A stretch of 44,195 nt of DNA. Origin: an uncultured Candidatus Saccharibacteria bacterium (GTDB lineage Bacteria > Patescibacteriota > Minisyncoccia > Phycocordibacterales > UBA2100). The position numbers and the translations under genes are program-made. Every line of letters begins with the position of its first letter. The stretch's first letter is position 1. The DNA is taken from contig CAYIDY010000004.1 of the NCBI GenBank assembly GCA_964362305.1, positions 1-44,195 of the forward strand, given 5' to 3'. The notes under the pieces were generated by a model. It saw nothing but the letters and a program-made list of their open reading frames with translations, made no database searches and had not been told where the DNA came from. Positions 1,162 to 30,031 of this stretch are shown piece by piece.

Positions 1162-1746
1162 ATGAGGATGTTCTATAATACACGTATGCGATTTCTTGCT
1201 CTCGGTGGAATAGTGGCAGCACTCGGTTTTAGCGCGTGGTTTTTTTTGGGAGCATCTGAACCCGTAACTCCTTTGATAGTCGCCTCGCAGAGCGCTGCGG
1301 TAAATACACTTACTGATATCGTCACCGAGCCTGCGCCGCCCTTGGGCCCTTTGTATCGCAATCGCCAGTATGGATTCTCGCTGAACATGCCGGAAGGATT
1401 CGTCGCGGCGGAATTGCCGTTCGACGGCACGGGGCAGGCGACCACGCTCCAAGACCAACAAGGCAACGGCATTCAAATTTACATCACGCCGGACGTGGGC
1501 AAAGCGCGCTCAATCTCCGCGCGCGACGTCTCGAGTCAGATTCCCGACATGCAGGTCGTGAACGCGCAGGATGTGGAAATCGGCGACGATTATCGCGGCG
1601 TCGCGTTCATGAGCGACAACGAAGCCTTTGCGGGCGCATCGCGCGAAGTCTGGTTCGTCTTCCGCGGCAACCTGTATCAGATTTCCACCTACGCCCGCCT
1701 CGACCCGCTCCTCCAAGCGATGTTCGGCACGTGGAAATTCGAGTGA
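1162..1746 (+). CDS. Hypothetical membrane-anchored/secreted protein
   Basis: Track ORF 1072..1746 trimmed to the first ATG after the upstream stop (1151). It has an N-terminal hydrophobic segment (FLALGGIVAALGFSAWFFLGA). No family recognised. Confidence 0.55.
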   Translation: MRMFYNTRMRFLALGGIVAALGFSAWFFLGASEPVTPLIVASQSAAVNTLTDIVTEPAPPLGPLYRNRQYGFSLNMPEGFVAAELPFDGTGQATTLQDQQGNGIQIYITPDVGKARSISARDVSSQIPDMQVVNAQDVEIGDDYRGVAFMSDNEAFAGASREVWFVFRGNLYQISTYARLDPLLQAMFGTWKFE

Positions 1747-1747
1747 T

Positions 1748-3880: not shown

Positions 3881-3881
3881 T

Positions 3882-9056: not shown

Positions 9057-9285
9057 GAAAATAAGCCAAAAAATGGCTATCCACAGAATAAATGAAAAAT
9101 GTGCGGCAAAAAGTGCTAAAAGTACGTAGAATGAGAATGTTCCGGAAGGGAGTAAGGGACCTAAAATTAAGAAAAGGGCCGAAATCGCAAAAAAGACATG
9201 AAAAGGGAACAGAAGACACAAGATTTTTCTAGAAATTTGGGCGTAGTTTTTATTGTCTTGCGGAAATTTCGGAAAAAAAGTATGT

Positions 9286-9954
9286 ATGCGTAAAATTAAA
9301 TTTGCGGACGGAGAGTTCTACCACTTATACAATCGCGGCGTTGATAAACGAATTGTGTTTAACACGAAAGCGGATCACGAACGCTTTCAAGCATATCTGT
9401 ATGTACTCAACGATTCACACAACGACCGCTCGGCAATTCGCTTTACCTCAGAAGAAAGTAAGAAAGCATTTTTTTCGCGCGAAAGAATTGAACCGCTCGT
9501 TGCGATTGGCGCGTACTGCTTGATGCCAAATCATTTTCATATTCTCGCGACACCACTTGTCGAAAATGGTATCTCAAAATTTATGCACAAATTGCAAACG
9601 GCGTACACGATGCATTTCAACGAACGAATGTCACGAACAGGAAGCTTGTTTCAAGGAACGTTTAAAGCTACGCATGTAGATGACGATGCGTACTTGCATT
9701 ACTTGTATGCATACATTCATCTTAATCCTGCAAAACTTTTAACCGATGACTGGAAAAATGCAAGCGCAGAAGAACTGCGGCAGCTGGGATCAAAGATTTT
9801 GGCGTATCCCTTTTCTAGCGCCGGTGAATACAATCTCAACACGTTTGTCATCACTAACCCGCAGCCGTTTCCAAAGTACTTTCAAAAGACCAGGGATATG
9901 CGAGCGCACCTCCAATTCTGGCTAAAGTATAAAAACGCGGAGACGGCCGCGTGA
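9286..9954 (+). CDS. IS200/IS605-type Y1 (HUH) transposase-like protein, RAYT/COG1943-like
   Basis: Motifs: N-terminal GEFYHLYNRG, HUH motif in CLMPNHFHILATP, and catalytic Tyr region LHYLYAYIHLNPAK. Start trimmed from TTG 9253 to ATG 9286. Confidence 0.8.
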   Translation: MRKIKFADGEFYHLYNRGVDKRIVFNTKADHERFQAYLYVLNDSHNDRSAIRFTSEESKKAFFSRERIEPLVAIGAYCLMPNHFHILATPLVENGISKFMHKLQTAYTMHFNERMSRTGSLFQGTFKATHVDDDAYLHYLYAYIHLNPAKLLTDDWKNASAEELRQLGSKILAYPFSSAGEYNLNTFVITNPQPFPKYFQKTRDMRAHLQFWLKYKNAETAA

Positions 9955-9985: not shown

Positions 9986-10364
9986 ACGAAAGCACTACTT
10001 ATGGTAGTAGTCGAGGTCCGCGTCAGTCGGCTTGAAATAAAGCCATAAACCGAGTGGCAATGCAGTGTTAGGCACACGACTCCGTACCATTTATGTACTC
10101 GCAATTTCATTACACGCTTTAAGACGCTTGTACGAAATCTGCGCGAGAATGCATGCTAAAGGACAAAATATGGCGTAAAAAGGAAACTCGGAAATCCGAT
10201 TCCTGCCAAATATGTACAGTACTATTTTCCGGGTGCTATGAATAATTTTCAAAACCGCATCGTTTTCGCTTGAAGCAAATCATCCGGATTTGGGACTGCC
10301 TGGAGGCACTTATCCCTGGGTTCACGGCAACAAACGACGGTATTTGGCGTGGTATATTTCGTGC

Positions 10365-11375
10365 ATGAAAAAAATGAAAATAGGAATTAATGGATTTGGA
10401 CGTATCGGTCGAGGTTTTATGCGCGCGATACATGGCCGTGAGGATATGACCGTTGTCGCGATCAACGACTTGGGAGCCGCCGCTAATCTTGCGTATCTTC
10501 TTAAGTACGACACCGTCTATGGTCGCACTCCTTTCAGTGTCACTGCCGCGGACAAAGCAATTGTCGTTGATGGCGTGTCCATTCCCGTTTTTGCCGAAAA
10601 GGAACTTTCGAATCTGCCGTGGAAAAATTTTGACGTTGACATAGCGCTTGAAGCGACGGGACTATTTACGGATGCAGAGAAAGCAAAAACACATTTAACT
10701 GCGGGTGCGAAGCGCGTCGTGATTACTGCTCCTGGAAAAGGCGATGGTGTGGAAACGATTTTGATTGGTGCGAATGAAGAAAAGTTTGGCACGTGTGACA
10801 TTACTTCCAACGCGTCGTGTACAACAAACGCAGCTTCGCCGCTCATTGGCGTACTTCTTGAAACTATCGGCATTGAGCGAGCACTTTTGAATACGACGCA
10901 TGCGTACACCGCGAGTCAAAGTCTTGTTGATGGTGGAAAAGCAAAAGATATGCGCGAGCAGCGCGCTGCGGCGCAAAACATGGTTCCTACTTCAACGGGA
11001 GCTGCGAAAGCAACGACAATCGCGTATCCATCGCTCAAAGACAAGTTCGACGGAATTTCTGTTCGCGTGCCGGTACCGGCAGGCTCTATTGTGGATGTGA
11101 CGTTTGTGGCAAGTCGCCCAACCAGTGTTGAGGAAGTGAACGCTGCTTTGAAAACCGCTGCGGCATCTGAAAAGTGGAAGCGCGTGTTTGCGGTGAGCGA
11201 GGAGCCCCTGGTGTCATCTGACATCCTTGGTCTTCCGTACGGCTCAATTGCAGATTTAACCATGACGCGTGTTGTGGATGGAACGCTTGTGAAAGTTATG
11301 GCGTGGTACGATAACGAAATGGGATACGTGCATACGTTAGTTGAGCACGTTGCTGAAGTAGGAAAACGCATTTAA
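10365..11375 (+). CDS. gap: Glyceraldehyde-3-phosphate dehydrogenase, type I
   Basis: Motifs: MKKMKIGINGFGRIGR Rossmann N-terminus, SNASCTTN active-site Cys motif, and WYDNEMGY C-terminal motif. The track ORF start 10290 is an upstream extension; ATG 10374 is also possible. Confidence 0.92.
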   Translation: MKKMKIGINGFGRIGRGFMRAIHGREDMTVVAINDLGAAANLAYLLKYDTVYGRTPFSVTAADKAIVVDGVSIPVFAEKELSNLPWKNFDVDIALEATGLFTDAEKAKTHLTAGAKRVVITAPGKGDGVETILIGANEEKFGTCDITSNASCTTNAASPLIGVLLETIGIERALLNTTHAYTASQSLVDGGKAKDMREQRAAAQNMVPTSTGAAKATTIAYPSLKDKFDGISVRVPVPAGSIVDVTFVASRPTSVEEVNAALKTAAASEKWKRVFAVSEEPLVSSDILGLPYGSIADLTMTRVVDGTLVKVMAWYDNEMGYVHTLVEHVAEVGKRI

Positions 11376-11385
11376 CGCACATCAC

Positions 11386-11877
11386 ATGTCAACGATTTAT
11401 ATCGCAACCGATCACGCAGGTTTCGAATTAAAGAATCTTCTCGTCGAGTACGTGAAGTCGCTCGGGCACGACGTGGTTGATTGTGGTGCTCACCTGTTTG
11501 ATGTTGCCGACGACTATCCGCCGATTATCGCCGGCGCCGCGAGAAAACTTTCGGAAGACGCGAGTGCGGGGCGCGATAGCCGAGCGATTGTCATTGGTGC
11601 ATCCGGTCAGGGCGAGGCAATGGTAGCGAATCGTTTCAAAAATGTTCGCTGCGCGCTCTACTATGGTGTGCCACAGAGCTCGCAAATTGATGCGGCGGGA
11701 AAAGAACTGAACATGTTGCAATCGACTCGAATTCACAACAATGCAAACGCACTATCGCTTGGCGCACGTTTTTTGACAGAACAGGAAGCGAAAGACGCAG
11801 TGCGACAATGGCTTGAAACATCGTTCTCCGGGGAGGAACGTCATGCGCGGCGAGTCCAACAAATTGATACGCAATGA
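11386..11877 (+). CDS. rpiB: Ribose-5-phosphate isomerase B (RpiB/LacA/LacB family)
   Basis: The N-terminus IYIATDHAGFELKNLLVEYVKSLGHDVVDCG and a length of 163 aa are typical of RpiB. Confidence 0.88.
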   Translation: MSTIYIATDHAGFELKNLLVEYVKSLGHDVVDCGAHLFDVADDYPPIIAGAARKLSEDASAGRDSRAIVIGASGQGEAMVANRFKNVRCALYYGVPQSSQIDAAGKELNMLQSTRIHNNANALSLGARFLTEQEAKDAVRQWLETSFSGEERHARRVQQIDTQ

Positions 11878-12593
11878 TTTCTTCACAACAAACGAAGCGT
11901 GCCGAAATAATCCCGACGAATACCTGTCCAAAGACTCTTGAAGAATTAACAGCGCGCTCGTCTGCATTTAGCGCGTATACTCCCGTCGTTCACCTTGATG
12001 TGAGCGATAACAAATTCGCCCCCACGCAATCGTGGCCCTTTTTTGATGGGCAATGGAATGAGCTTGAAGCAATGGGGGTCGGGCAAAACAAAATGCCGCT
12101 TTTGAATGCGCCGCTGCACTATGAAGTGCATTTGATGATTGAAAATCCGCTTTCTGCGGGCGTTGCGTTTGCTCGCGCGGGAGTATCGCGCATCATTGCG
12201 CATGTAGAGGCATTTCGACACGCCGACGGGGCGCTCGATGCCTTTAAGATGTGGCGCGTCTCTGGTGCAAAAGAAGTCGGCCTCGCGATTCTCATGGATA
12301 CGCCGCTCGATACGCTTCGCCCGTTTGCCGGCATTTGCGATGAGTTTTTAGTGATGACTATCGCCACCGTCGGAAAACAAGGGATTCCGTTTGATGAACG
12401 CGGCGTCGAACGTATCAAAGAGCTTCACAAGCGACATCCGGAGATTGCGATTGCAGCAGATGGCGGCGTCTCGGATAAAAACATTAAACAGTTGGCGAAA
12501 GCAGGCGCGACTCGTTTCTGTGTTGGCTCGGCAATTGAAAAACAGCCCGACCCGGCAGTGGCGTACCAGCATTTACTTGAAATAGTGAACTAG
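11874..12593 (+). CDS. rpe: Ribulose-phosphate 3-epimerase family protein (divergent)
   Basis: ATGA overlap with rpiB. Motifs match the Rpe TIM-barrel layout: VHLDVSDNKFAP, EVHLMIENP, AHVEAF, TVGKQGIPF, ADGGV and VGSAI. Confidence 0.7.
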   Translation: MISSQQTKRAEIIPTNTCPKTLEELTARSSAFSAYTPVVHLDVSDNKFAPTQSWPFFDGQWNELEAMGVGQNKMPLLNAPLHYEVHLMIENPLSAGVAFARAGVSRIIAHVEAFRHADGALDAFKMWRVSGAKEVGLAILMDTPLDTLRPFAGICDEFLVMTIATVGKQGIPFDERGVERIKELHKRHPEIAIAADGGVSDKNIKQLAKAGATRFCVGSAIEKQPDPAVAYQHLLEIVN

Positions 12594-12649
12594 AAGACTA
12601 TTAACACGTCTTGACGCGACACTTCCACTCGGTGCGCTACACTATTGAT

Positions 12650-12856
12650 ATGGCGCTATGGAACGGTAACGGGAGCACTCCGCTCGTGGAGTTTATTCTG
12701 AAGTCCGGCGTTGTTTCGGACCGAAAACAGGCTGAGAGAATACTTATCGCAGTCGCGGCGCTATGTTTCGTTGCGATTGCGTGGATGCTTTGGCCTGAGC
12801 CAAGTCTCCCAGAAAATGTTCAAGAAAACCCTAATTACGAGCCAGTAACTCGCTAG
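12650..12856 (+). CDS. Small single-pass membrane protein, hypothetical
   Basis: 68 aa from ATG 12650; the track ORF begins at TTG 12611. TM helix: ILIAVAALCFVAIAWMLW. A -10-like TACACT lies 6 nt upstream of the ATG. Confidence 0.45.
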   Translation: MALWNGNGSTPLVEFILKSGVVSDRKQAERILIAVAALCFVAIAWMLWPEPSLPENVQENPNYEPVTR

Positions 12857-12861
12857 TAGTC

Positions 12862-13428
12862 ATGCGTATTTCTCCTGCTCGCGGATTTACTCTCATAGAA
12901 TTGTTGGTTGTTATCGGTATTATCGGAATTCTCGCGAGCACGGTTACCGCGAGTATTGCCCCTGCACGTGAAAAAGCGCGCGATGCGAAGCGCATGCAAG
13001 ACCTCAACCAGATACGCAACGCCATCGAGCTGTACTACGAAAACAATGGTTCGTATCCGCAATTTCGCGCATACACCGACGCAACGAACTGCGGGTTCAA
13101 TTGGTGCTCGCTTGAAACAGCGCTCGACCCGTACATCACAGATTTGCCGCGCGACCCTGTGGGCGGCACCACGTATGTCTATTATTACGATGCAAATTCC
13201 GGTGACAGTTTTCAATCGTATGGCCTGATGATGCGACCGGAGAGCCCCTTGAATGCGTGGCGCGCCTCGTCGGATGGCGGTTTTTATACCGTATTTTATG
13301 AAATCGGTTCTCAACCTTTATATTGCATGAGAAAGTACGACGATACGGGAACGCCCGACCCGGAAATTCAAGCACGGTGGTGGCCGACGACCCCTTCGTC
13401 AGCTTCAGTGTGTTTTGGTGGAGACTGA
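12862..13428 (+). CDS. Type IV pilin / type II secretion pseudopilin-like protein (prepilin N-terminal methylation domain)
   Basis: Canonical prepilin leader and hydrophobic helix: MRISPARG/FTLIELLVVIGIIGILAS. This is followed by a GspG-like segment (AREKARDAKRMQDLNQIRNAIELYY). Confidence 0.88.
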   Translation: MRISPARGFTLIELLVVIGIIGILASTVTASIAPAREKARDAKRMQDLNQIRNAIELYYENNGSYPQFRAYTDATNCGFNWCSLETALDPYITDLPRDPVGGTTYVYYYDANSGDSFQSYGLMMRPESPLNAWRASSDGGFYTVFYEIGSQPLYCMRKYDDTGTPDPEIQARWWPTTPSSASVCFGGD

Positions 13429-13577
13429 TATCGCGCACGCATGATGAGATTGGCCTGAAGTTACTGGACTTGTAGCATCTCAGTTATCGAATCTCTGCAT
13501 CGCAACTATCCACATCAGGGTCGCTCCTAAAAAGTGGCGCTGTGCCATGATGAACGCATATCCTAACCACTTTCTCC

Positions 13578-15818
13578 ATGCCCCGCACAATCGCATCCGG
13601 AATCGCACTTCTGTTTCTGGTCAGTCCCGTCTTTGTCTCCGCACAGAGCGTTGCCGACTTGTGGGCACAAATCACCGAACTCATGAACCGTGTCGGAGCG
13701 CTCCGCTCTCAAGCGGCAGCAGCTGCTTCATCCACATTAGCAATAGCGAACCCGTGTCCCGTACTGAACCGTACGCTCTCCTACGCAGCCCGTTCAAGTT
13801 CCCGCGGTGCAGATGTGAAAGATTTGCAGCGTTGGTTAATCGGCGAAGGCTATCTCGCAGCCGGAAACGACACTGGCTACTTTGGCCTCCTCACCGAAAA
13901 AGCAGTCAAAGACTTCCAATGCAAAGAAGGCGTCGTCTGTAGTGGCACCGCCGCTACAACCGGCTATGGCTCTGTAGGACCGGCGACGCGCGCGGCGATT
14001 GCGAAGACCTGTGCGACACCAATTACGCCACCTCCACCACCTCCACCACCTCCGCCGCCACCACCTCCGCCTCCACCACCTCCAGGGACGTCATGCGTAT
14101 TTAACGGCCAGACGATTACACACGGCACCTCCATCACCGCATACCAAGCAAGCAGCGTACCGGCAGGGCAGTCGTGCATTTCAGAGCGGCGGACGTGCTC
14201 GAACGGAACGTTGTCGGGGACATTTGCGTTTACGACGTGTACGGTTGCTCTTCAGCAAGCCGCACATCGCATCTCGGTGAGTGGCGGAACGTTCCGCGAT
14301 TCGGTCACTGGCAGTATTTTCACCCCGCGCGGCAATAACTACTCACGCCTCACGAACGACTGGCATTCGACCTTCGATCCGGGAGCCTATGACAGCGCAC
14401 GCGTTGAGACAGCGCTCGCGCGGATGCAGGCCGGCGGCTACAACAGCGTGCGCGTATTCCTGAATGTGCAGAAGATTGGCCTTGAAGGCTCGACTCCTGG
14501 TCTCAATCCGGCGTACATGAATAATCTCTTGGACTTCCTGCGCCGGGCGAAAAGTCACAACATCTACGTGATTGTGGCCGGCCAATGGTTTCCGAACAAT
14601 TATGCGCCAATAGCGTACGCATTACCGACGCCAGCGAACGTCGGCGGGGTCATGAATATCACCTTCCTCCATCCGGGTTTTATTCAAGCATACGCTGCGT
14701 ATTGGAAAGATGTTGTCGGATACATCAAGAACGCTGACGCGGGATTGCTTGCGACCGTCTTAGGATATGACCCATGGAACGAGGGTGCATATGACACCAC
14801 CGAATTACCGTTTTCCAGCATGTCGGGAACGGTGAAGCCCGCATCCGGCGGAAGCTACGACCTCTCCAGCACGGCCTCGCGCCAAGCGCTCGCGGATGAT
14901 TCCGCGACCTATTGGGTGAATCAGCTCTCAAGCGCGATAAAAAGCGTTGATCCTTCCGCGCTCGTGACTCTCAGCGTGTTTTCACCGTATGCCGTCGGAA
15001 AAAATATTGACGGAGTCATGCCAGGAGGGGCAAGTCCTTTCGTTCCTTTCCGATGGAAAGCGCTTGAACAATCGGCCCTCGATTATATTGATTTACATGC
15101 CTATCCCCTCAGCACCGCGTGGACTTTTGCCGTCGAAGTCAATTCAGCGCAGATTCCATTGCAAGGGCAGAAGTCGCGGATGCTCGGCGAATACGGCGCG
15201 TTCAAACAATTCTTCGGTACGCTATCAAGCGCGGAGTCAATGCTAATTGCCGCACAATCCGCGAGCTGCCCGTACAACTTCTCTGGATGGCTCTTGTGGA
15301 CGTGGGACACTACGGAGCAAGTGCGTCTCTGGAATGCGCTTGATGGCGGGGGACAGCTTGAGCGCGGTCTTTCACCGAATGTTCGGCCGAATCCGTGCCT
15401 AGCACCAATTCCGACGGTTTCGAATCTCGCGCTGAACGCGAGTGTGACGGCGTCGAACACGCTTGTCGGCTCTTCGGCAAGCAGTGTGGTTGATGGAAAT
15501 AATTCCACGATTTGGAATTCTGGTGGGTCCGCGCCGCAGTGGATTCAGATTGATCTCGGTGCGCTAAGAGAAGTAACTTCCATCAAGCTCACCACAGCGC
15601 AGACTCCGGCGGGGCAGACAACTCATTCTGTCTACGGAAGCGTAACGGGGAATGACAATTGGCAGCTCGTGGCGACATTCAATGGCAGTACGACGGACGG
15701 GCAGGAACTGAGCGCTGATGTGCCGAATGGATTCCCTAATGTTCGGTATGTAAAAATCGAGACAACAGTGAGTCCGTCGTGGATTGCATGGAGTGAGATA
15801 CAAGTCTTGGGACGGTAG
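13578..15818 (+). CDS. Secreted multidomain protein: PG-binding domain, poly-Pro linker, Cys-rich module, GH5-like (clan GH-A) glycosidase, C-terminal F5/8 type C (discoidin/CBM32-like) domain
   Basis: Signal peptide is present. PG_binding_1-like segment: GADVKDLQRWLIGEGYL...GYFGLLTEKAVKDFQ. GH-A signatures: SVRVFLN, WNEG (acid/base NE), DLHAYP and LGEYG (nucleophile). Discoidin-like tail: VVDGNNSTIWNSGG..QWIQIDLG...VRYVKIET...WSEIQVLG. Confidence 0.75.
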   Translation: MPRTIASGIALLFLVSPVFVSAQSVADLWAQITELMNRVGALRSQAAAAASSTLAIANPCPVLNRTLSYAARSSSRGADVKDLQRWLIGEGYLAAGNDTGYFGLLTEKAVKDFQCKEGVVCSGTAATTGYGSVGPATRAAIAKTCATPITPPPPPPPPPPPPPPPPPPPGTSCVFNGQTITHGTSITAYQASSVPAGQSCISERRTCSNGTLSGTFAFTTCTVALQQAAHRISVSGGTFRDSVTGSIFTPRGNNYSRLTNDWHSTFDPGAYDSARVETALARMQAGGYNSVRVFLNVQKIGLEGSTPGLNPAYMNNLLDFLRRAKSHNIYVIVAGQWFPNNYAPIAYALPTPANVGGVMNITFLHPGFIQAYAAYWKDVVGYIKNADAGLLATVLGYDPWNEGAYDTTELPFSSMSGTVKPASGGSYDLSSTASRQALADDSATYWVNQLSSAIKSVDPSALVTLSVFSPYAVGKNIDGVMPGGASPFVPFRWKALEQSALDYIDLHAYPLSTAWTFAVEVNSAQIPLQGQKSRMLGEYGAFKQFFGTLSSAESMLIAAQSASCPYNFSGWLLWTWDTTEQVRLWNALDGGGQLERGLSPNVRPNPCLAPIPTVSNLALNASVTASNTLVGSSASSVVDGNNSTIWNSGGSAPQWIQIDLGALREVTSIKLTTAQTPAGQTTHSVYGSVTGNDNWQLVATFNGSTTDGQELSADVPNGFPNVRYVKIETTVSPSWIAWSEIQVLGR
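14028..14084 (+). repeat. Run of 19 consecutive proline codons (CCN) forming an interdomain linker
   Basis: Codons counted directly from 14028 to 14084. The antisense poly-Gly ORF 13964..14179 in the track is its shadow. Confidence 0.9.
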
Positions 15819-15852
15819 TCCTCGAGAAAGTGAAGGTATTGTTGAAGATGCG

Positions 15853-15881
15853 TTGACAGTGCTTCACATACACGATATTTT
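15853..15881 (+). promoter_or_regulatory. sigma70-like promoter TTGACA-N17-TATTTT upstream of the aro leader
   Basis: The -35 box is at 15853-15858, the spacer is 17 nt, and the -10 box is at 15876-15881. An ATG follows 6 nt after the -10. Confidence 0.5.
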
Positions 15882-15887
15882 GTTGGT

Positions 15888-15959
15888 ATGGATTGCGCGC
15901 AGTATTTTAGTTTCTGGTTTACGAAGCTCTCCTTCGAGAGTTCGTTTGCGCGTTTGTAA
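15888..15959 (+). CDS. Candidate 23-codon leader peptide MDCAQYFSFWFTKLSFESSFARL (aromatic-rich)
   Basis: ORF translated manually from ATG 15888 to TAA 15957-15959. Codons 6-11 encode Tyr-Phe-Ser-Phe-Trp-Phe. It lies between a promoter-like site and a terminator hairpin, upstream of aroQ. Confidence 0.45.
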   Translation: MDCAQYFSFWFTKLSFESSFARL

Positions 15960-15981
15960 GAAACAGAAACTTACGAAAACG

Positions 15982-16010
15982 AAAACGAGCCCTCGAAAGG
16001 GGCTCGTTTT
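15982..16010 (+). terminator. Intrinsic terminator-like hairpin (candidate attenuator terminator)
   Basis: AAAACGAGCCC (15982-15992) pairs with GGGCTCGTTTT (16000-16010), giving an 11-bp stem and a 7-nt loop. The T4 run is short and is followed by an A run, so this could also be the bidirectional terminator of the upstream gene. Confidence 0.5.
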
Positions 16011-16034
16011 AAAAACAAGTACGAATTGTTTCCC

Positions 16035-16086
16035 GGAAAGGGATTTTCGACGGAGGAGTGGCTCATACCGCCAAAAATCCCTTTCC
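16035..16086. repeat. Perfect 13-bp inverted repeat (GGAAAGGGATTTT ... AAAATCCCTTTCC) with a 26-nt loop, just upstream of the aroQ RBS
   Basis: Arms are at 16035-16047 and 16074-16086. The loop contains GACGGAGG. It resembles the 19662-19759 element. Confidence 0.75.
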
Positions 16087-16104
16087 AGGAAACACAAAAT
16101 CTCT

Positions 16105-16542
16105 ATGAAAAAAATAGTACTAATTCATGGTCCGAATTTGAATATGCTCGGGAGTCGGGCGCATGAATATTACGGGACGCTGACCCTGCGAGATATTGAA
16201 ACGCTGGTTGCTGAAGAAGGCAAAAAGCTCGGATTTGTCACCGAAGCATTTCAATCCAATCACGAAGGCGCGCTCATTGATTTTTTACAGAAAGAAAGGG
16301 AAGCCGCAGCGGGAATTATCATTAACCCGGGCGCATTCACGCACTATAGTTATGCGCTTCATGACGCCATTGTTGATACGAGACTGCCGTGCGTCGAGGT
16401 ACATCTTTCTAATATTAAAGAGCGAGAGGAGTGGAGGCAGAAATCGGTGACGGCCGCGGCGTGTATTGCACAGGTTTCCGGAAAAAAAGAGAAAGGATAT
16501 GTTGAAGCTCTCGAAATACTCGCGAAACATTTGAAAAAATAA
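16105..16542 (+). CDS. aroQ: 3-dehydroquinate dehydratase, type II
   Basis: Motifs: MKKIVLIHGPNLNMLG, QSNHEGALID, INPGAFTHYSYALHDA and VEVHLSNI. The track ORF 15784..16542 is an N-terminal over-extension. Confidence 0.92.
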   Translation: MKKIVLIHGPNLNMLGSRAHEYYGTLTLRDIETLVAEEGKKLGFVTEAFQSNHEGALIDFLQKEREAAAGIIINPGAFTHYSYALHDAIVDTRLPCVEVHLSNIKEREEWRQKSVTAAACIAQVSGKKEKGYVEALEILAKHLKK

Positions 16543-16543
16543 T

Positions 16544-17347
16544 ATGGCGTTGCTCAAAACAGCAGTCGTTGGCCATCCGATAGCGCATAGCTTGAGCCCA
16601 CTGCTTCACAATGCGATTTATAGGAACGAAGGCGTTGATGCAGAAATGACGGCGATTGATAATGAGCACGTTGAGCCATTAGTTGAAATGATGCGAACGG
16701 TGCCACTGGGGCTTACTGCAATAACATTGCCGCACAAACAGGCGGTCATGCCGTTACTTGATGAGATTGATGACACGGCGCGTGAAATTGGCGCGGTGAA
16801 TACCGTGATTAATCGTGATGGGAAATTGATTGGGTATAACACCGATATAGTGGGAATTGCCGCAGCTTTGGAAGGCGTGGAGCTTCGGGGAAAGAATATT
16901 CTCGTAATTGGCGCCGGCGGCGCAGCGCAGCCGCTCGCATTTTTTTTGCACAAGCAGAATATTGAGTGGAAGTGTGTAAGCCGGAACGTGGCGAAAACGA
17001 AAGCGGCATGCGAAAAGTTTGGCGGGAATGCGCTTGATGCGATGCCCGAAGACGGCGTGTTCGACATTATAGTGAATACAACGCCGGTGGGGCTCGCAAA
17101 AAGCGACGAACTACCATGCCCGGAAAATCTACTTCAGCCGGGTGTCACTGTTTTTGACCTCATCTATACGCCGACGAAATTACAGCACGTAGCGAAGCAA
17201 AAAGGCGTACGCGTCATCACGGGGTTATCTATGTTTGTCGCACAGGGCTTGGAGCAAGAAAGGCTCTGGCTCGGTAGAAAAATCCCTGATTCCGGGTATA
17301 GTGCGCTACTTCTGGACCACCTACGAGAAACTTCAAAAAACCTATGA
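16544..17347 (+). CDS. aroE: Shikimate dehydrogenase
   Basis: Motifs: VGHPIAHSLSPLLHNA, LTAITLPHK, GAVNTV, GYNTD and GAGGAA. The ATG lies 1 nt after the aroQ stop. Confidence 0.9.
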   Translation: MALLKTAVVGHPIAHSLSPLLHNAIYRNEGVDAEMTAIDNEHVEPLVEMMRTVPLGLTAITLPHKQAVMPLLDEIDDTAREIGAVNTVINRDGKLIGYNTDIVGIAAALEGVELRGKNILVIGAGGAAQPLAFFLHKQNIEWKCVSRNVAKTKAACEKFGGNALDAMPEDGVFDIIVNTTPVGLAKSDELPCPENLLQPGVTVFDLIYTPTKLQHVAKQKGVRVITGLSMFVAQGLEQERLWLGRKIPDSGYSALLLDHLRETSKNL

Positions 17348-18393
17348 CCGACAAATTAATGAATGTGCGTGTAATAAAAAAGATGCCGACGGCCGACGAC
17401 ATAATTGCGGCGACGCCGATTTCGGATAAAGACCTTGCACGCGTTGCCAAAGACCGACAAGAAATTTCTGACATTCTTGCAGGTCGTGACGACAGGCTTC
17501 TCTGTATTGTGGGGCCGTGCTCGGCGTGGCCCTCGCCCGCGGTTTTGAAATACGCGGAACGTCTCAAAAAAGTTTCTGACAAAATAAAGAAGAAGGTAAA
17601 GGTTGTGATGCGCATTTACATTCAAAAGCCGCGCACGATTCGCGGCTGGCTTGGGCCGGTGAATCAGCCAAATCCGTATCAATCTCCCGACATTGCGCTC
17701 GGCGCACAGTATTGTCGCGACATGATGGTGAAATGCATCGAAATGGGACTCCCCGTTGCGGACGAAGCCCTCTTTACCCACAACGCGCGCGGATTCGCAG
17801 AACTGTTGTCATGGATTGCAATCGGTGCGCGAAGTGTTGAAGACCAAGAACATCGCATTTTTGCTTCCGGCATGCACTGCCCGGTCGGCATGAAGAACGG
17901 GACGTCGGGTTCTATTGAAGTTGCCGTGAATGGCATCGTCGCGGCGCAGCACAAACATCACGCGGTTTTTGACGGGCATCAAGTGGAAACTCTCGGTAAT
18001 CAATACGCACACTTGGTTTTGCGCGGCGGCGCGCAGGGACCCAATTATGGACCGGAACACGTTCACGAAGCGGCGCTGTTGTTCCAAAAACACAAAGTAA
18101 AGAATCCGGCGATTATCATCGACGTAAGTCACGACAACTGCAAAGTGAATGGCTCAAAAGCGACACTGAGACAGGTGGAAGTGATGCGTGAATCTTTGGC
18201 GCTGCGTGGTGTCAGTAACGAATACCGAACGCTCGTGAAGGGATTTATGATTGAAAGCTTTATCAAGGACGGAGCGCAGAAACTTGAAAGCCAGGACGAA
18301 AAAACCATCGACCGCGGGGGCCTTTCAATTACTGACCCATGCGTCGGCTGGGACGCGACCGAGGCGGCGCTTAAGGAGATGGCGTCGGCGTAA
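17344..18393 (+). CDS. aroG: 3-deoxy-7-phosphoheptulonate (DAHP) synthase, class I (AroF/G/H type; isozyme specificity unknown)
   Basis: ATGA overlap with aroE. Motifs: RLLCIVGPCS, IQKPRTIRGW, and a DVSHDNC-type metal site. Length is 349 aa. Confidence 0.88.
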   Translation: MTDKLMNVRVIKKMPTADDIIAATPISDKDLARVAKDRQEISDILAGRDDRLLCIVGPCSAWPSPAVLKYAERLKKVSDKIKKKVKVVMRIYIQKPRTIRGWLGPVNQPNPYQSPDIALGAQYCRDMMVKCIEMGLPVADEALFTHNARGFAELLSWIAIGARSVEDQEHRIFASGMHCPVGMKNGTSGSIEVAVNGIVAAQHKHHAVFDGHQVETLGNQYAHLVLRGGAQGPNYGPEHVHEAALLFQKHKVKNPAIIIDVSHDNCKVNGSKATLRQVEVMRESLALRGVSNEYRTLVKGFMIESFIKDGAQKLESQDEKTIDRGGLSITDPCVGWDATEAALKEMASA

Positions 18394-18425
18394 TATGATT
18401 ACTAACTCTCGCTCGAGCGCATGTA

Positions 18426-18500
18426 TTTTTGCCGTCGCTGTCTGCCGCTACTGCGGCAGCGCTGCCTCTCGGCCCGTCGGCCTGCGAGACACGGCAAAAA
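18426..18500. other. Structured intergenic element between the DAHP synthase gene and aroB
   Basis: TTTTTGCCGT (18426-18435) pairs with ACGGCAAAAA (18491-18500). This stem encloses the inner hairpins CTGCCG/CGGCAG (18442-18447 with 18454-18459) and GGCC/GGCC (18471-18474 with 18479-18482). Confidence 0.6.
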
Positions 18501-18531
18501 CACATACGCTCTCGCTTTCGTTCCAATCTTT

Positions 18532-19638
18532 ATGAAGACTAAAAAAATTCTAGTAGAGGTAGGGAAGTCGTATCCGATGTATATCGGCACGAATCTTGAA
18601 AAGGAATTAGTGCATGCGGTTCTTGCCGAGAAAGCGACGCGCGTTGCCATCATCACCGATTCAACGGTCGGCAAACAGCATGGCACGCGCGTGTTAAAAA
18701 TTTTCAAGGATGCGGAAATGGCAGTAGAAATTTTTACGTTCAAGGCGGGGGAGTCAAATAAAAATCAAAAGACGGTGACTTCCCTTCAGCACGAACTTTT
18801 GAAGCGCGGCTACGGTCGCGACACGCTTATTGTCGCACTCGGCGGTGGTGTAGTTGGTGATGTTGCGGGGTTTGTTGCGGCGACGTACCTGCGGGGTGTG
18901 CCATATATTCACGTGCCGACGTCGCTGCTTGCGATGGTGGACAGTTCTGTCGGCGGCAAAGTGGGAATTGATACTGCGTACGGAAAAAATACGATTGGGG
19001 CGTTCTGGCAGCCGCAGGCGGTGATTATGGATTTCCAGTTTCTTAAGACGTTGCCGCTGCACGAATTCGTGAATGGCTATTTTGAGGCGATAAAAACGTT
19101 CATAACGTCCGACGCGCGTATGTTTGCGCGCGCAAAAACACTGCACATTGAATCGCCTCTCGCTGATATGGAATTGGTCGCCGATATCATTCATCGGTCC
19201 GTTGAGATTAAGGCGGAGATAGTCGCCCGCGACGAGCGCGAACAGAATGAGCGTCGTGTCGTGAATTTTGGGCACACCATCGGCCACGCGATTGAGCTTC
19301 TTTCGAAATTCAAAATTCCGCACGGATTTTCAGTTGGCTACGGCATGCTTGTCGAAACGGAAATCGCACGCTCTCTCAAGATTCTTTCCCAAAAAGATGC
19401 CGATGCGATTCGCGAATATCTCGCAACGCTTGGCATAACAGCACGGCCACTATCTAAATTCCCCGTAAAAAAAATTCTCGAGATGACCCGCGCCGACAAA
19501 AAGTCCAAGGGTGGCATGCCGCACTATGTACTCGTGAACGGAATTGGGTCGGTGTATACCCACAAAGGCCAGTTTGCGCACGCCGTATCGGACGCCGTTG
19601 TCACCACCGCACTCCTTGAACTTGTAAGAGTCCATTAA
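18532..19638 (+). CDS. aroB: 3-dehydroquinate synthase
   Basis: Start trimmed to ATG 18532. Motifs: ALGGGVVGDVAGFVAATYLRG, PTSLLAMVDSSVGGK, and the NFGHTIGHA metal site. Confidence 0.9.
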   Translation: MKTKKILVEVGKSYPMYIGTNLEKELVHAVLAEKATRVAIITDSTVGKQHGTRVLKIFKDAEMAVEIFTFKAGESNKNQKTVTSLQHELLKRGYGRDTLIVALGGGVVGDVAGFVAATYLRGVPYIHVPTSLLAMVDSSVGGKVGIDTAYGKNTIGAFWQPQAVIMDFQFLKTLPLHEFVNGYFEAIKTFITSDARMFARAKTLHIESPLADMELVADIIHRSVEIKAEIVARDEREQNERRVVNFGHTIGHAIELLSKFKIPHGFSVGYGMLVETEIARSLKILSQKDADAIREYLATLGITARPLSKFPVKKILEMTRADKKSKGGMPHYVLVNGIGSVYTHKGQFAHAVSDAVVTTALLELVRVH

Positions 19639-19780
19639 ATAACCCGGGTACCCACGGCGAAAAGCGGATTTTTCGAGGCACGAAACGAGACGGAGGCCGA
19701 AGCGTGCCCTGAGGCACGTTGAGGTCGAGGCGAAGATTTGTGACCGAAAAATCCGCTTTGCAGCCAGGGTGGGGTTATTT
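19638..19780 (+). other. ~140-nt highly structured intergenic element (candidate cis-regulatory RNA or REP-like palindrome)
   Basis: Outer helix: AAATAACCC (19638-19646) pairs with GGGTTATTT (19772-19780). A perfect 15-bp helix joins 19662-19676 and 19745-19759. In the core, CGTGCC (19703-19708) can pair with either of two GGCACG copies (19678-19683 or 19713-19718). Confidence 0.6.
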
Positions 19781-19824
19781 GATGGGCTCTAAGAAAAACT
19801 AGGGTATAATCAGCGCACTCTCTT

Positions 19825-20694
19825 ATGACGCTGACCGATAAGCAGCAACAAGACCTTTCGCGACGTGCATATCAGGTCCGCCGGACCATCATAGAAATGC
19901 TCGCCGAATCCAGTGTAAAGACTAAAAGTGGCCACACCGCCGGTCCCATGGGCATGGCGGACATTTTTACCGCACTCTACTTTCATGTGATGAAGCACGA
20001 CCCAAAAAAATGGGATTGGGACGAGCGCGACCGCCTCTTTCTTTCAAATGGGCACATTACGCCGGTGCGCTACGCCGTAATGGCACATGCCGGCTATTTT
20101 CCTATTGAAGAATGCCTCACTCTGCGCCAGTTCGGCTCGCGGCTTCAAGGACACCCCGAGCGGGACATGTTGCCGTGTGTTGAATCTACTTCCGGGCCTT
20201 TGGGAAGCGGGCTTTCGCAAGCGGCCGGATACGCGTATGCCGGTAGGATGGATGGCAAGAAGTTCCGAGTCTTTTGTGCGACGTCTGATGGCGAACATCA
20301 GGAAGGAAATACATGGGAAGGCGTGATGTTTGCGGGCAAATATCGTCTCAACCATCTTGTGCAAATAATGGACCGCAACAATATTCAGATTGAAGGTGAC
20401 ACCGAAGATGTGATGCCACTCGAACCACTTGCCGACAAGTACCGTGCATTCAATTGGCACGTCATCGAAATCGATGGCCACAATATCAGGGCGTTTGTTG
20501 ATGCGTGTGACGAAGCCGCTGCGATACAAGAAAAGCCGACACTCATTCTCGCGAATACGATTCCCGGAAAAGGTGTGAAAGAAATGGAGAATGATTACAA
20601 ATGGCATGGCAAACCGCCGACGAAAGACGAGGCGGCCAAATTCTTAGCCGAACTTGACGCAACATTTGCAGAAACCGAAAAGTCATATGCTTAA
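19825..20694 (+). CDS. tkt: Transketolase, N-terminal (TPP pyrophosphate-binding) subunit
   Basis: 289 aa with SGHTAGPMGMADIFTALYFH, SNGH and GSGLSQAAG motifs. A perfect TATAAT lies at 19805-19810. Confidence 0.9.
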   Translation: MTLTDKQQQDLSRRAYQVRRTIIEMLAESSVKTKSGHTAGPMGMADIFTALYFHVMKHDPKKWDWDERDRLFLSNGHITPVRYAVMAHAGYFPIEECLTLRQFGSRLQGHPERDMLPCVESTSGPLGSGLSQAAGYAYAGRMDGKKFRVFCATSDGEHQEGNTWEGVMFAGKYRLNHLVQIMDRNNIQIEGDTEDVMPLEPLADKYRAFNWHVIEIDGHNIRAFVDACDEAAAIQEKPTLILANTIPGKGVKEMENDYKWHGKPPTKDEAAKFLAELDATFAETEKSYA

Positions 20695-21679
20695 TCCAGA
20701 AATGAAATTGCGGGAAGATTTGTGGGACGGCAAAGAGCTTGCGCCCACGCGCCAGGGTTTTGGCGAAGGCCTCGTTGAGGCGGGAGAAAAAGACGAGCGT
20801 GTCGTGGCGCTTTCTGCCGATTTAACCGAGTCAACAAAAATGGACCTTTTCGAGAAAAAGTTTCCCTCTCGATTCGTACAAATAGGTGTAGCTGAACAAA
20901 ATCTTGTGACCGTTGCGAGCGGCATGGCGGCATATGGAAAAATTCCGTTTGTCACTTCCTACGCTGCATTTTCTCCCGGGAGAAATTGGGAACAGATACG
21001 AACGACGATTGCGCTCAATGACGTGCCAGTGAAGGTGGTCGGCTCTCATGCAGGGCTTCTCACGGGGCCCGACGGCGCGACGCACCAAATGCTCGAAGAC
21101 ATCGCCCTCATGCGCGTTCTGCCGAATATGACCGTGTTTTCTCCCTGCGATGCTGAAGAGGCACGAAAAGTGACGCTTGCCGCAGCCGTTTCCGGTAAGC
21201 CTGCGTACATCCGTGTAGAGCGAGAAAAAATGCCGCGCATGACGACGAAAGACACGCCATTTGCGATTGGAAAGGCGAATGTGATGTGGCAGACTGATAC
21301 GCCGGTCGTCGCGATTTTTGCGACAGGCTCACTCCTCCACAACGCACTGAAAGCGGCGCGTGATTTGGAAAAAGAAGGGATTCAGGTGACCGTCACCAAC
21401 ATTCACACGATAAAACCAATTGACGACGAATCAATTGTGCGTGAAGCACGTCGCGCTCAGGCTGTTGTTACCGTCGAGGAGCACCAAGTACAAGGTGGGC
21501 TTGGAAGCGCTGTTGCAGAAGTATTGGGACGAGAAGCGCCGACACCGATGGAATTCATTGGCGTCCAGAATAGGTTTGGTCAATCTGGAACCGCGACGGA
21601 ACTAATAGAGTACTATGGACTTGGCGTCTCGCACATTATTGGCGCCGTTAGAAAAGTTTTAACCAGAAAAGGGAAGTAA
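20687..21679 (+). CDS. tkt: Transketolase, C-terminal (pyrimidine-binding and C-terminal domains) subunit
   Basis: Start trimmed to ATG 20687, overlapping the upstream TAA (ATGCTTAA). Motifs: TRQGFGEGL, FVQIGVAEQN and GPDGATHQMLEDIA. Confidence 0.9.
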   Translation: MLNPEMKLREDLWDGKELAPTRQGFGEGLVEAGEKDERVVALSADLTESTKMDLFEKKFPSRFVQIGVAEQNLVTVASGMAAYGKIPFVTSYAAFSPGRNWEQIRTTIALNDVPVKVVGSHAGLLTGPDGATHQMLEDIALMRVLPNMTVFSPCDAEEARKVTLAAAVSGKPAYIRVEREKMPRMTTKDTPFAIGKANVMWQTDTPVVAIFATGSLLHNALKAARDLEKEGIQVTVTNIHTIKPIDDESIVREARRAQAVVTVEEHQVQGGLGSAVAEVLGREAPTPMEFIGVQNRFGQSGTATELIEYYGLGVSHIIGAVRKVLTRKGK

Positions 21680-21680
21680 T

Positions 21681-21845
21681 ATGGGAAAAAGTAACCCCCT
21701 CACGCAGGAAGTTAATTTTATAATCTCAGTCATTTTTCTTGGCTCCGCAGCGCTTCTTGCAATCGTGGTAATTTTGGAGGCGTCAGAAATGGAGAACCCT
21801 ATCGCCACACACATGGCGGCAATCATCGTTCAGCAGGAACTCTAA
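21681..21845 (+). CDS. Candidate 54-aa single-pass membrane protein (below the ORF-track cutoff)
   Basis: Manual translation: MGKSNPLTQEVNFIISVIFLGSAALLAIVVILEASEMENPIATHMAAIIVQQEL*. The ATG lies 1 nt after the tkt stop, and an SD-like AAGGGAAG lies 4 nt upstream. Confidence 0.35.
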   Translation: MGKSNPLTQEVNFIISVIFLGSAALLAIVVILEASEMENPIATHMAAIIVQQEL

Positions 21846-21914
21846 ACGTATTTTATTCGTTGCGCTTAAGAGCAATATACAGACGGGTCCGAATTGGTTC
21901 AATGGCAACAGCCG

Positions 21915-22589
21915 TCACCGAGACGACTCGCTCACAATCACCGCGCGCAGCAGTGCGCTTCGGTAGAAATCCGGATTGAGTGTAAGTTTCCCGCCGTTTT
22001 CACGAAGACTTTCTGAGTGAAATACGCGAGTTCCTATTCCCGATAGGAGGTCTTGAGGGAACACTAACCGTTTTGCGGAAAAGGGGAGAAGATCAGTATC
22101 GACGTGGTGATATGCGCCACACACCAGCTTAGTGCAAAACCACTCTTCACGACTCGATGTATTAAAGTCATAATCAAAGGGAAGTCCAAGCTTATTGCGC
22201 ATCCATGCAACGGCCCTCGCCTTGCAGTCTTCTGACGTATTAATTCGTATCACAATGAGGGTGTCATACACGTCGAAAAGTTCTCGATACGCGATGCGCT
22301 CGACACCCTCCCCATGAGCATGAATACATTCGCCATTTCCCACATAGAGGAGTGAGTGAGTCACAATCCCCCGCATATAAAAAGCTACTAATTTGTGGTG
22401 ATTTCCAACCAGAACGATATCGCCCGCCCGGATGATAGTGACGGAATCTTTGTAATCCTTCTCGGTTAAAAATGGGGGCCGTCGCCAGAAACGAAAAGAA
22501 CCAATATTGAAGAGAGCGGTTGCTTTTATTCTTTTGAAGATTGTCGGATGCTTTCCCAAGTTACGAATCACGTGGTGCGTGTACGTCAT
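21915..22589 (-). CDS. Permuted papain-like (NlpC/P60 superfamily, YiiX/C92-like) hydrolase
   Basis: Start trimmed to ATG 22589 to avoid overlap with the upstream gene. The order His (THSLLYVG) ... GEGVERI ... PFDYDF ... Cys (WFCTKLV) matches the circularly permuted YiiX layout. Confidence 0.55.
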   Translation of the reverse strand: MTYTHHVIRNLGKHPTIFKRIKATALFNIGSFRFWRRPPFLTEKDYKDSVTIIRAGDIVLVGNHHKLVAFYMRGIVTHSLLYVGNGECIHAHGEGVERIAYRELFDVYDTLIVIRINTSEDCKARAVAWMRNKLGLPFDYDFNTSSREEWFCTKLVCGAYHHVDTDLLPFSAKRLVFPQDLLSGIGTRVFHSESLRENGGKLTLNPDFYRSALLRAVIVSESSR

Positions 22590-26841: not shown

Positions 26842-27552
26842 ATGGCGGAGTCACCTCGCGCACAAATGATTTCGGACCGTGTGGAATCAGAGCTTTCGGT
26901 GGGCACTGCGACGACACTTCGTGAAATAGCCACATTACCTGAAGACGTTATTGTAGTTGAAGGTGATGCTGTCGCCGAATCGTTCTATGACATTCAAAAG
27001 AAGGTGATGGAACTACGGAATCAGGAGCAGTCGGATAAAGGGATTATCCTTGTTTTCAGAACGCGTGGAAAGTTCAAAGATATTTCTTTGGAAGAAGCCG
27101 ACATACTGGCTCATGAATCTGGCGCTGATGCATTTGTATTCGATGAGAGACCAGCGATATTGAAAAAGAAGCAAGCGCTGGCAATACAGATGGTTAGCAA
27201 TAGGATGCGTCGTGGAGCGCATTTTCAGAAGGAGGCATCCGAAGAGAAGCCCGATGGAGAAAAATGCGGTTGTAAAATCTGGATATCAAAACATCTCGTA
27301 ACAGTGAACGGAATACCGCTGAAAAACTTGAGGCCAAAACGATTCGCATTTATGGAGATGCTGATTTCGTCTCGACGAGACTATGTGCCCTTTGAAAGCC
27401 TCCAGAAGATCACTGAATCATCAAACGAAAACAGGCACCAGAATTATTTGACCGCATCAATGGTTAAGGAGTTGAATAGACTTCTTCGACCACTTGGAGT
27501 GGAGATTAAGAATGTGTACAGCCTGGGCTATCGGCTCGCCAAAATAAAATAA
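26842..27552 (+). CDS. OmpR/PhoB-type winged-helix DNA-binding protein with a degenerate receiver-like N-terminal domain
   Basis: The C-terminus LKNLRPKRFAFMEMLISSRRDYVPFESL...VKELNRLLRPLGVEIKNVYSLGYRL matches the trans_reg_C layout. The N-terminal part has an alternating beta/alpha-like pattern (VIVVEGD, IILVF, GADAFVF) but no obvious phospho-acceptor Asp. Confidence 0.55.
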   Translation: MAESPRAQMISDRVESELSVGTATTLREIATLPEDVIVVEGDAVAESFYDIQKKVMELRNQEQSDKGIILVFRTRGKFKDISLEEADILAHESGADAFVFDERPAILKKKQALAIQMVSNRMRRGAHFQKEASEEKPDGEKCGCKIWISKHLVTVNGIPLKNLRPKRFAFMEMLISSRRDYVPFESLQKITESSNENRHQNYLTASMVKELNRLLRPLGVEIKNVYSLGYRLAKIK

Positions 27553-30004: not shown

Positions 30005-30031
30005 CCCCTGACCCCGAAAGGGGCTCATTTC

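Follow-up and report, generated by a model that had tools for sequence, protein, structure and literature searches.

A predicted leaderless leader-peptide attenuator rich in aromatic codons precedes the shikimate genes of a Kaiserbacteria-like bacterium of the candidate phyla radiation

The present study concerns the DNA directly upstream of aroQ on contig CAYIDY010000004.1 of an uncultured bacterium belonging to the Patescibacteria, or candidate phyla radiation (CPR); the whole stretch analysed, 44,195 nucleotides (nt) in length, is referred to as the window. Our analysis suggests that the 286-bp intergenic gap 5' of aroQ (15819-16104) harbors a functional ribosome-mediated attenuator of the trpL/pheL type, which would sense the supply of aromatic aminoacyl-tRNAs. 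We put the probability of this reading at about 0.78, based on the comparison of related loci and on modeled RNA folds. An initial annotation, made from the letters of the window, had already proposed such an attenuator on aroQ-aroE-DAHP synthase-aroB, and this proposal is supported by the orthologue comparison and by constrained folding. The individual elements that it had placed in the gap, namely a promoter followed after 6 nt by an ATG, a 23-codon open reading frame (ORF) in which Tyr, Phe and Trp occur together in codons 6-11, a 1:2 hairpin, and a terminator hairpin ending in TTTT, can all be read in the sequence at the positions assigned to them. The arrangement of promoter, ORF and hairpins is far more than chance would produce, since the same unit is found at nine further loci, in one of which it is truncated. 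The unit consists of the following elements:

15853-15858, + strand: -35 box TTGACA, read in the sequence and recovered by a promoter scan; identical in nine of nine complete loci
15876-15881, + strand: -10 box TATTTT, of the TAnnnT class, with a 17-nt spacer to the -35 box and a 6-nt gap to the ATG
15888-15959, + strand: leader ORF of 23 codons plus TAA (15957-59), encoding the peptide MDCAQYFSFWFTKLSFESSFARL; read in the sequence and conserved as an ORF in nine loci
15903-15920, + strand: aromatic codon run Tyr6 Phe7 Ser8 Phe9 Trp10 Phe11; an aromatic cluster is present in every complete locus
15895-15953, + strand: region 1:2, an outer GC helix (15895-15902/15946-15953) around hairpin A (15921-15945), from the minimum-energy fold of the free RNA
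15931-16000, + strand: antiterminator 2:3, a long hairpin, from the minimum-energy fold under masking
15954-15976, + strand: hairpin B, the top of the antiterminator, holding the UAA stop codon; -4.4 kcal/mol by folding
15982-16010, + strand: terminator hairpin 3:4, AAAACGAGCCCC/GGGGCUCGUUUU, followed by UUUU; from sequence, scan and folding, -19.0 kcal/mol

Searches with aroQ in metagenome and assembly collections yielded nine further loci (L081, L161-L165, L085, L172 and the 5'-truncated L166), whose aroQ is 69-85% identical to that of the window, and in all ten loci the unit sits directly 5' of aroQ. Each of the nine complete copies has TTGACA, a spacer of 16-17 nt, a TAnnnT box, a gap of 6-8 nt and an ATG, the -10 box of the orthologues reading TACTCT, TACGCT, TACTTT, TAGGCT, TAGTAT or TAGCCT. 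In the window, this promoter is the top sigma-70-type match within the 9 kb that were scanned (13000-22000), with agreement at 10 of 12 positions. The leader ORF comprises 23-25 codons, starts with ATG and ends with TAA or TAG in all nine complete loci, and the differences in length are whole codons (two additional codons in L085, one in L172), by which the frame is kept. The leader peptides are:

Window: MDCAQYFSFWFTKLSFESSFARL
L081: MSARYYFSFLFTELSLESSFARL
L161: MTARYYFSFWFTKLSLESSFARL
L162: MTRARYFSFWFTTLSLESSFARL
L164: MTRARYFSFWFTTLSFESSFARL
L165: MNRARYFSFWFTTLSLESSFARL
L163: MTARYNFWFYFTGLSLESSFARS
L085: MQLVIARWFRWFTYELSLESSFARL
L172: MTRAQYFFWFFFYDLKLEVSFARS

Seven of the 23 residues of MDCAQYFSFWFTKLSFESSFARL are aromatic, and the aromatic share of the leader peptides ranges from 24 to 38%, compared to 8.3% in the genes of the window. 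In each complete locus the best stretch of eight codons contains five to eight for Phe, Tyr or Trp, and all three amino acids occur in eight of the nine peptides. The orthologues retain the small ORF with its frame, start codon, stop codon and aromatic run, but not the order of the aromatic codons: the run reads YFSFWF, YYFSFWF, YYFSFLF, YNFWFYF, WFRWFTY or YFFWFFFY, depending on the locus. As the class of aromatic codons persists while order and nucleotides change, we take these to be codons that are read by a ribosome and not a U-rich RNA motif. The flanks have diverged, with differences in the promoter spacer, in the N-terminal codons and past the terminator.

The gene on the 5' side of the unit differs between loci. 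L164 and L165 have a gene for a PCC-domain protein in this position, L161 and L162 have one for an unknown protein, preceded in turn by a PCC-domain gene, and L172 has rpe, while in the window it is a gene (13578-15818) whose product carries the Pfam domains PG_binding_1 and F5/8 type C; the earlier label 'GH5-like' for this protein is not supported, as Pfam gives no GH5 match. Thus, the unit belongs to aroQ and not to the gene upstream of it. A single C separates the U-tract of the terminator from the aroQ ATG in L085, and this distance is 13-15 nt in L161 and L163-L165, which leaves little or no space for a separate aroQ promoter; such a promoter 3' of the terminator was also considered and rejected, as none is conserved among the loci. 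The leader is absent from the Kaiserbacteria-type loci L167-L171 and L082, in which rpe adjoins aroQ. The closest aroQ from the GTDB representative genomes shares 66% identity; it likewise lacks the leader and is directly preceded by an ORF labeled by eye as shikimate-kinase-like. A search with a leader profile (nhmmer) over about 170 collected loci returned no further copies; a weak self-match on the reverse strand is explained by the palindromic nature of the antiterminator. Since the more distant relatives are without the leader, the unit is best regarded as an innovation of a sub-clade.

The ATG at 15888 is predicted from its distance to the -10 box to represent the 5' end of the transcript, which would then be leaderless. 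No Shine-Dalgarno motif was found before any of the 35 larger ORFs of the window, and a TAnnnT box occurs 5-9 nt upstream of 10 of 36 start codons in the window (e.g. those at 26842, 27952, 28963, 31369, 33726 and 34584) versus 4% of random positions. To judge from these motifs, leaderless mRNAs appear to be common in the Kaiserbacteria-like genome from which the window stems. Translation of the leader from a 5'-terminal AUG would hence fit the habit of the genome.

The RNA of the leader is strongly structured. Folding of the free RNA 15888-16015 gives -44.5 kcal/mol, with z = -4.2 relative to shuffled controls, and z = -6.0 is obtained for 15882-16110. The arms of the 1:2 hairpin, CGAAGCUCUC and GAGAGUUCG, are found in the sequence, and the aromatic run stops one or two codons short of hairpin A in all loci. 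Alternatively, the segment GAGAGUUCGUUU (15936-47) can pair with AAACGAGCCCUC (15983-94), and the 10 Watson-Crick pairs and one G-U pair over 12 positions that had been counted for this interaction were confirmed. In the complete antiterminator, the 5' half (15931-15960) takes in the 3' arm of hairpin A as well as the stop codon, and the 3' half (15970-16000) takes in the 5' arm of the terminator. For the window, the energies are -21.1 kcal/mol for 1:2, -10.8 for hairpin A alone, -29.6 for 2:3 and -44.5 for the full terminated state. A stalled ribosome was mimicked by masking the RNA up to 12 nt past the A-site codon prior to minimum-energy folding. When nt 1-31, 1-37, 1-40 or 1-43 of the window's leader RNA were masked in this way, corresponding to F7, F9, W10 or F11 in the A site, the antiterminator became the minimum-energy fold. 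With nt 1-43 masked, 2:3 reaches -29.6 kcal/mol versus -26.6 kcal/mol for the best fold that contains the terminator, and the energetic competitiveness of 2:3, on which the attenuator proposal had been made to depend, is therefore given. Masking past the late aromatic codons converted the terminator into the antiterminator in eight of nine loci, and masking to the stop codon left the terminator alone in all nine.

Similarly, the structures are retained across the loci. The terminator core GAGCCC/GGGCUC and the UUUU occur in all ten, with a 5' arm of GGGCCC in L172, and the stems are GC-rich with energies between -12.7 and -19.8 kcal/mol, yet the conserved tract has only four U. In the alignment of ten sequences the antiterminator is 92.7% paired, compared to 34-52% after displacement of the 3' partners by one to three columns, and neither the observed pairing nor the covariation score was reached by any of 500 shuffles; nine sequences gave a similar result. 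One antiterminator pair has changed from UA to AU in four sequences, which is compensatory. Hairpin A of L172 is built from a different sequence (GACCUC/GAGGUC), and hairpin B is retained with sequence changes in L163, L165, L085 and L172. The covariation support for the switch is moderate, and the stronger argument would be that the whole architecture is kept against diverged flanks.

Based on these features, we propose the following mechanism. Transcription would start at the A of the ATG at 15888 or no more than 1-2 nt away from it, and a 70S ribosome would load straight onto the leaderless 5' AUG and translate the 23-codon leader. With Phe-, Tyr- and Trp-tRNAs in plentiful supply, it would reach the UAA at 15957 and cover region 2, upon which the hairpin 15982-16010 with its UUUU would form and transcription would stop before aroQ. 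If no ribosome has loaded, region 1 would pair with region 2 and the terminator would form again. When an aromatic aminoacyl-tRNA is scarce, in turn, the ribosome would stall late in the run (at Phe9, Trp10 or Phe11) and mask region 1, leaving region 2 free to form the antiterminator 15931-16000 with the terminator's 5' arm, and RNA polymerase could read on into aroQ-aroE-DAHP synthase-aroB. Of this scheme, we infer where transcription starts, that the leader is translated, that the short U-tract terminates transcription and that the unit responds to the supply of aromatic amino acids.

Several observations weigh against this interpretation. In L081, where the Trp codon is lost and the terminator stem is longer, the terminator fold persists at all stall positions tested. 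Furthermore, ribosome-free nascent RNA thermodynamically prefers 2:3 once region 3 has emerged, 1:2 together with hairpin B being optimal only before that point; hence, a default 'off' state depends on kinetics, i.e. on the barrier formed by a preformed 1:2 helix, and by analogy to classical attenuators such a barrier may operate here. On the + strand the U-tract consists of four U followed by A or C and does not reach the rule applied in the terminator scan (at least five T in eight positions), because of which the scan lists the hairpin 15982-16010 as terminator-like on the - strand only. A hairpin with a U-tract was also not seen after other genes in the window. With regard to the comparative evidence, the compared sequences are fairly closely related, the lower antiterminator stem gives no covariation signal because it is invariant, and covariation of hairpin A is not statistically detectable in the alignment. 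Finally, Patescibacteria are not known to couple transcription to translation.

The shortness of the U-tract, with its four U, could also mean that the leader ORF exerts its effect by another route, such as control of aroQ translation through occlusion by the hairpin, Rho-dependent termination, or a TnaC-like arrest by which a free aromatic amino acid is sensed. In L085 the hairpin abuts the aroQ start and would occlude the ribosome-binding site, and the conserved tail of the peptide could in principle serve as an arrest motif. We nevertheless consider this unlikely: mutually exclusive 1:2, 2:3 and 3:4 pairings with UUUU after 3:4 in ten loci are a signature of terminator control, the hairpin is about 95-170 nt away from the aroQ start in four loci, too far for occlusion, and no known arrest motif was recognised upon inspection by eye alone. 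It might further be argued that promoter, transcript of about 125 nt and terminator make up a self-contained small gene that adjoins aroQ without controlling it and whose product is a small RNA acting in trans or a 23-residue peptide with a function of its own. The C-terminal LSLESSFAR(L/S) is conserved also as a peptide, and attenuator RNAs can double as trans-acting small RNAs, as is reported for rnTrpL (PMC6614838). However, the unit lies directly 5' of aroQ in ten loci, whatever is found upstream; a conserved second promoter between terminator and aroQ is missing, the U-tract of L085 being 1 nt from the aroQ ATG; and the conserved C-terminal codons overlap paired RNA segments, whereas the variable part keeps nothing but the identity of its aromatic codons, as would be expected of a sensor rather than of a folded peptide. 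An independent gene thus seems quite improbable.

A high degree of structure and conservation would also be expected if the region were a riboregulator that binds a ligand or a protein (riboswitch, T-box or TRAP-like site) and the ORF were incidental, and four of the loci contain a second, covarying hairpin whose loop is invariant. Neither the window nor eight orthologous loci, however, match an Rfam family at gathering score in this region, the sole related match, Phe_leader with 21.5 bits, is itself a model of a leader peptide, and the only unpaired conserved feature that could act as a sensor is the in-frame aromatic run with its varying nucleotides; a riboregulator of this kind is therefore very unlikely. 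Next to no weight is left for the fallback offered in the initial annotation, according to which the hairpin 15982-16010 simply terminates transcription of the gene on its 5' side (13578-15818), the small ORF and the alternative pairings being accidental. The hairpin does lie downstream of that gene, and its symmetrical pairing could act in both directions. It is, however, located 164 nt past the stop codon and behind the best promoter match in 9 kb, and the relatives have a PCC-domain protein, an unknown protein or rpe in the upstream position while the unit stays with aroQ and keeps its ORF frame and aromatic codons in nine loci, so that the comparative data already contradict this explanation.

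At gathering thresholds, Rfam identifies a single tRNA in the whole window. Below threshold, Phe_leader (RF01859) matches 15887-16013 over its full length with 21.5 bits and E = 0.39, compared to a gathering threshold of 55 bits, and it does not recur at E <= 10 in the eight orthologous loci. Trp_leader (RF00513) and T-box (RF00230) gave no match at E <= 10 in 15700-16250 or in the orthologous loci, and miRNA and small RNA matches in permissive scans of 15700-16250 and of the eight orthologous loci were dismissed as spurious, as they fall on the long hairpins. By these profile searches, the unit is outside every curated RNA family and represents a new sequence family.

The regulatory logic as such is well known. 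As in pheL-pheA and trpL-trpE of Escherichia coli, the regulatory codons are positioned just 5' of region 1, the stop codon lies in region 2, and the same 1:2/2:3/3:4 pairings are predicted. In contrast, the E. coli leaders possess a Shine-Dalgarno site, respond to a single amino acid and control a terminal branch, while the unit described here is predicted to be leaderless, to respond to three amino acids and to act on the common trunk, and its antiterminator of about 26 pairs is unusually long in comparison. Multivalent leaders with a Shine-Dalgarno site are known from the E. coli ilvGMEDA (Leu/Val/Ile) and thr (Thr/Ile) operons; in these, as proposed for the present unit, mixed codons integrate several end products of a branched pathway, with different amino acids and a different operon. 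The closest precedent is the aroR leader of Corynebacterium glutamicum (Phe-Tyr-Phe), which attenuates the aroF (DAHP synthase) operon (Neshat et al. 2014, summarized in PMC11802643; noted earlier in PMC4046766). As predicted for the unit upstream of aroQ, aroR is an attenuator of the common pathway with a mixed aromatic run, preceding an operon with DAHP synthase in a host in which leaderless mRNAs are common. The differences are that aroR is from Actinobacteria and not from Patescibacteria, that Trp codons occur in eight of the nine complete loci, that the aromatic run is longer, with five to eight aromatic codons, and that aroQ instead of aroF is the first gene. The likeness to aroR, drawn from that literature, is a functional one for which sequence relatedness is not expected, and aroR has experimental support whereas the present unit is predicted.

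Leaderless leader peptides have precedents as well: ilvB of C. glutamicum (Morbach 2000, cited in PMC4046766), trpL, leuL and ilvL of Streptomyces lividans (PMC8079986), and 14 predicted cases in Deinococcus deserti (PMC4007540). As predicted for the present unit, their transcripts begin at or next to the start codon, which directly follows a TAnnnT -10 box; of those listed, none combines Phe, Tyr and Trp in a leader of the shikimate trunk and none is from the CPR. By 2010, leader-peptide systems had been described in Proteobacteria, Actinobacteria and, as a recent addition, Firmicutes (PMC2965389). The initial annotation had regarded a mixed aromatic leader on the common pathway, driven from a leaderless transcript in a CPR-like genome, as undescribed. 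In view of aroR and of the Corynebacterium, Streptomyces and Deinococcus leaders, neither the mixed leader nor the leaderless start is new, and what stands is the CPR context, as we found no literature that links Patescibacteria or CPR to attenuators, leader peptides or leaderless translation. Thus, the mechanism is well known, and it is the phylogenetic and operon context which is new, with a close actinobacterial precedent.

Between the terminator and aroQ, the 5' untranslated region contains a further structure:

16028-16093, + strand: second long hairpin of 66 nt with an invariant apical ACGGAGGAGUGGCUCAUACCG that contains GGAGG; identified by folding and covariation

Compensatory changes are seen in 12 of its 28 predicted pairs among the three loci compared. 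It is found in four of the ten loci, in the window, L081 (3816-3881), L166 (approximately 108-173) and L162 (approximately 1920-2055), the last with a nested extra hairpin that has a similar CGGAG..ACCG loop, and is absent from the other six; it matches no Rfam family. It is not needed for the attenuator model. A repeated mobile element was considered and rejected, since the loop is found a single time in the window and not in any viral contig. Similarly, a small ORF within the hairpin (GGAGG, GTG at 16058) that would be coupled translationally to aroQ through an ATGA overlap is unsupported: the overlap exists in three of the four loci and L166 has an early stop, and the GGAGG is just 1 nt from the GTG in a genome without apparent Shine-Dalgarno use. 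Homogenisation of the two arms at the level of DNA is possible. Other inverted repeats were encountered as well. Between rpe and the leader promoter of L172 (2262-2392; Kaiserbacteria contig JACRFI010000023), there is a long-range inverted repeat, CCGGTAGTAGAATTTCGGCT ... AGCCGAAATTTCACTAACCGG, and long intergenic hairpins may be recurrent in these genomes. At 30007-30031 of the window, a hairpin CCCCGAAAGGGG followed by CUCAUUUC directly precedes the ATG of rpsB and resembles the leader terminator in its GC stem, GAAA loop and short U-rich tail.

The genes downstream of the unit, assigned by Pfam, are:

16105-16542, + strand: aroQ
16544-17347, + strand: aroE
17344-18393, + strand: DAHP synthase, type I
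18421-19638, + strand: aroB
19825-21679, + strand: split transketolase genes (N and C), following aroB

The order aroQ-aroE-DAHP synthase-aroB is also seen in related loci. We place the aroQ start at the ATG 16105, as reading from 16106 runs into stop codons. The public gene call on the contig begins at Met14 and yields 132 residues (P0001; window 16105-16143), but homologues of 143-147 residues align from residue 1, which makes ATG 16105 the better start; as the aroQ frame is open upstream to 15784, over-long calls of 158 and 198 residues (P0003, P0005) occur in relatives. The operon is part of a larger cluster of pentose-phosphate and shikimate genes (10290-21679) with gap, rpiB, rpe, aroQ, aroE, DAHP synthase, aroB, transketolase N and transketolase C, into which, in the window, a gene for a pilin-like protein (12862-13428) and that for the PG_binding/F5_F8 type C protein (13578-15818) are inserted between rpe and aroQ. 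An ORF for an IS200-like Y1 transposase (9253-9954) is located just 5' of gap-rpiB-rpe, and a Y1_Tnp gene flanks the cluster in L169 as well. Farther upstream (1628-8578), three successive large ORFs of 750, 715 and 850 residues each carry Laminin_G_3 (concanavalin A-like lectin) domains and probably encode surface proteins. Ribosomal protein S2 of the window shares 81% identity with a protein of Candidatus Kaiserbacteria and 80% with one of Parcubacteria, the named aroQ relatives belong to Kaiserbacteria, Parcubacteria or Patescibacteria, and TGA serves as a stop codon; the window thus stems from a Kaiserbacteria-like member of the CPR with the standard genetic code.

Patescibacteria are uncultured, have small genomes and are usually regarded as amino acid auxotrophs, and to our knowledge almost nothing is known about their gene regulation. 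Tentatively, and at slightly less than even odds, it might be hypothesized that the unit represents the first family of amino-acid-sensing ribosome-mediated attenuators in the CPR, in which a single leaderless leader integrates the charging of Phe-, Tyr- and Trp-tRNA to gate the shikimate trunk, with the hairpin 16028-16093 and its invariant GGAGGAGUGGCUCAUACC loop as a second regulatory layer. If true, reduced and supposedly auxotrophic bacteria would make their own aromatic amino acids, control them homeostatically and couple transcription to translation. The finding argues that the shikimate genes of the Kaiserbacteria-like clade serve the supply of aromatic amino acids, under feedback control via tRNA charging, and it offers a specific instance in which transcription-translation coupling on a leaderless mRNA can be put to the test, in a lineage without apparent Shine-Dalgarno use. 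It also adds a sequence family not present in Rfam, which can be used to annotate such loci. As the design is a textbook one with a close precedent in aroR of C. glutamicum, it widens the reach of a known principle and does not introduce a new one; its main value lies in the view that it offers into the regulation and the aromatic amino acid autonomy of CPR bacteria.

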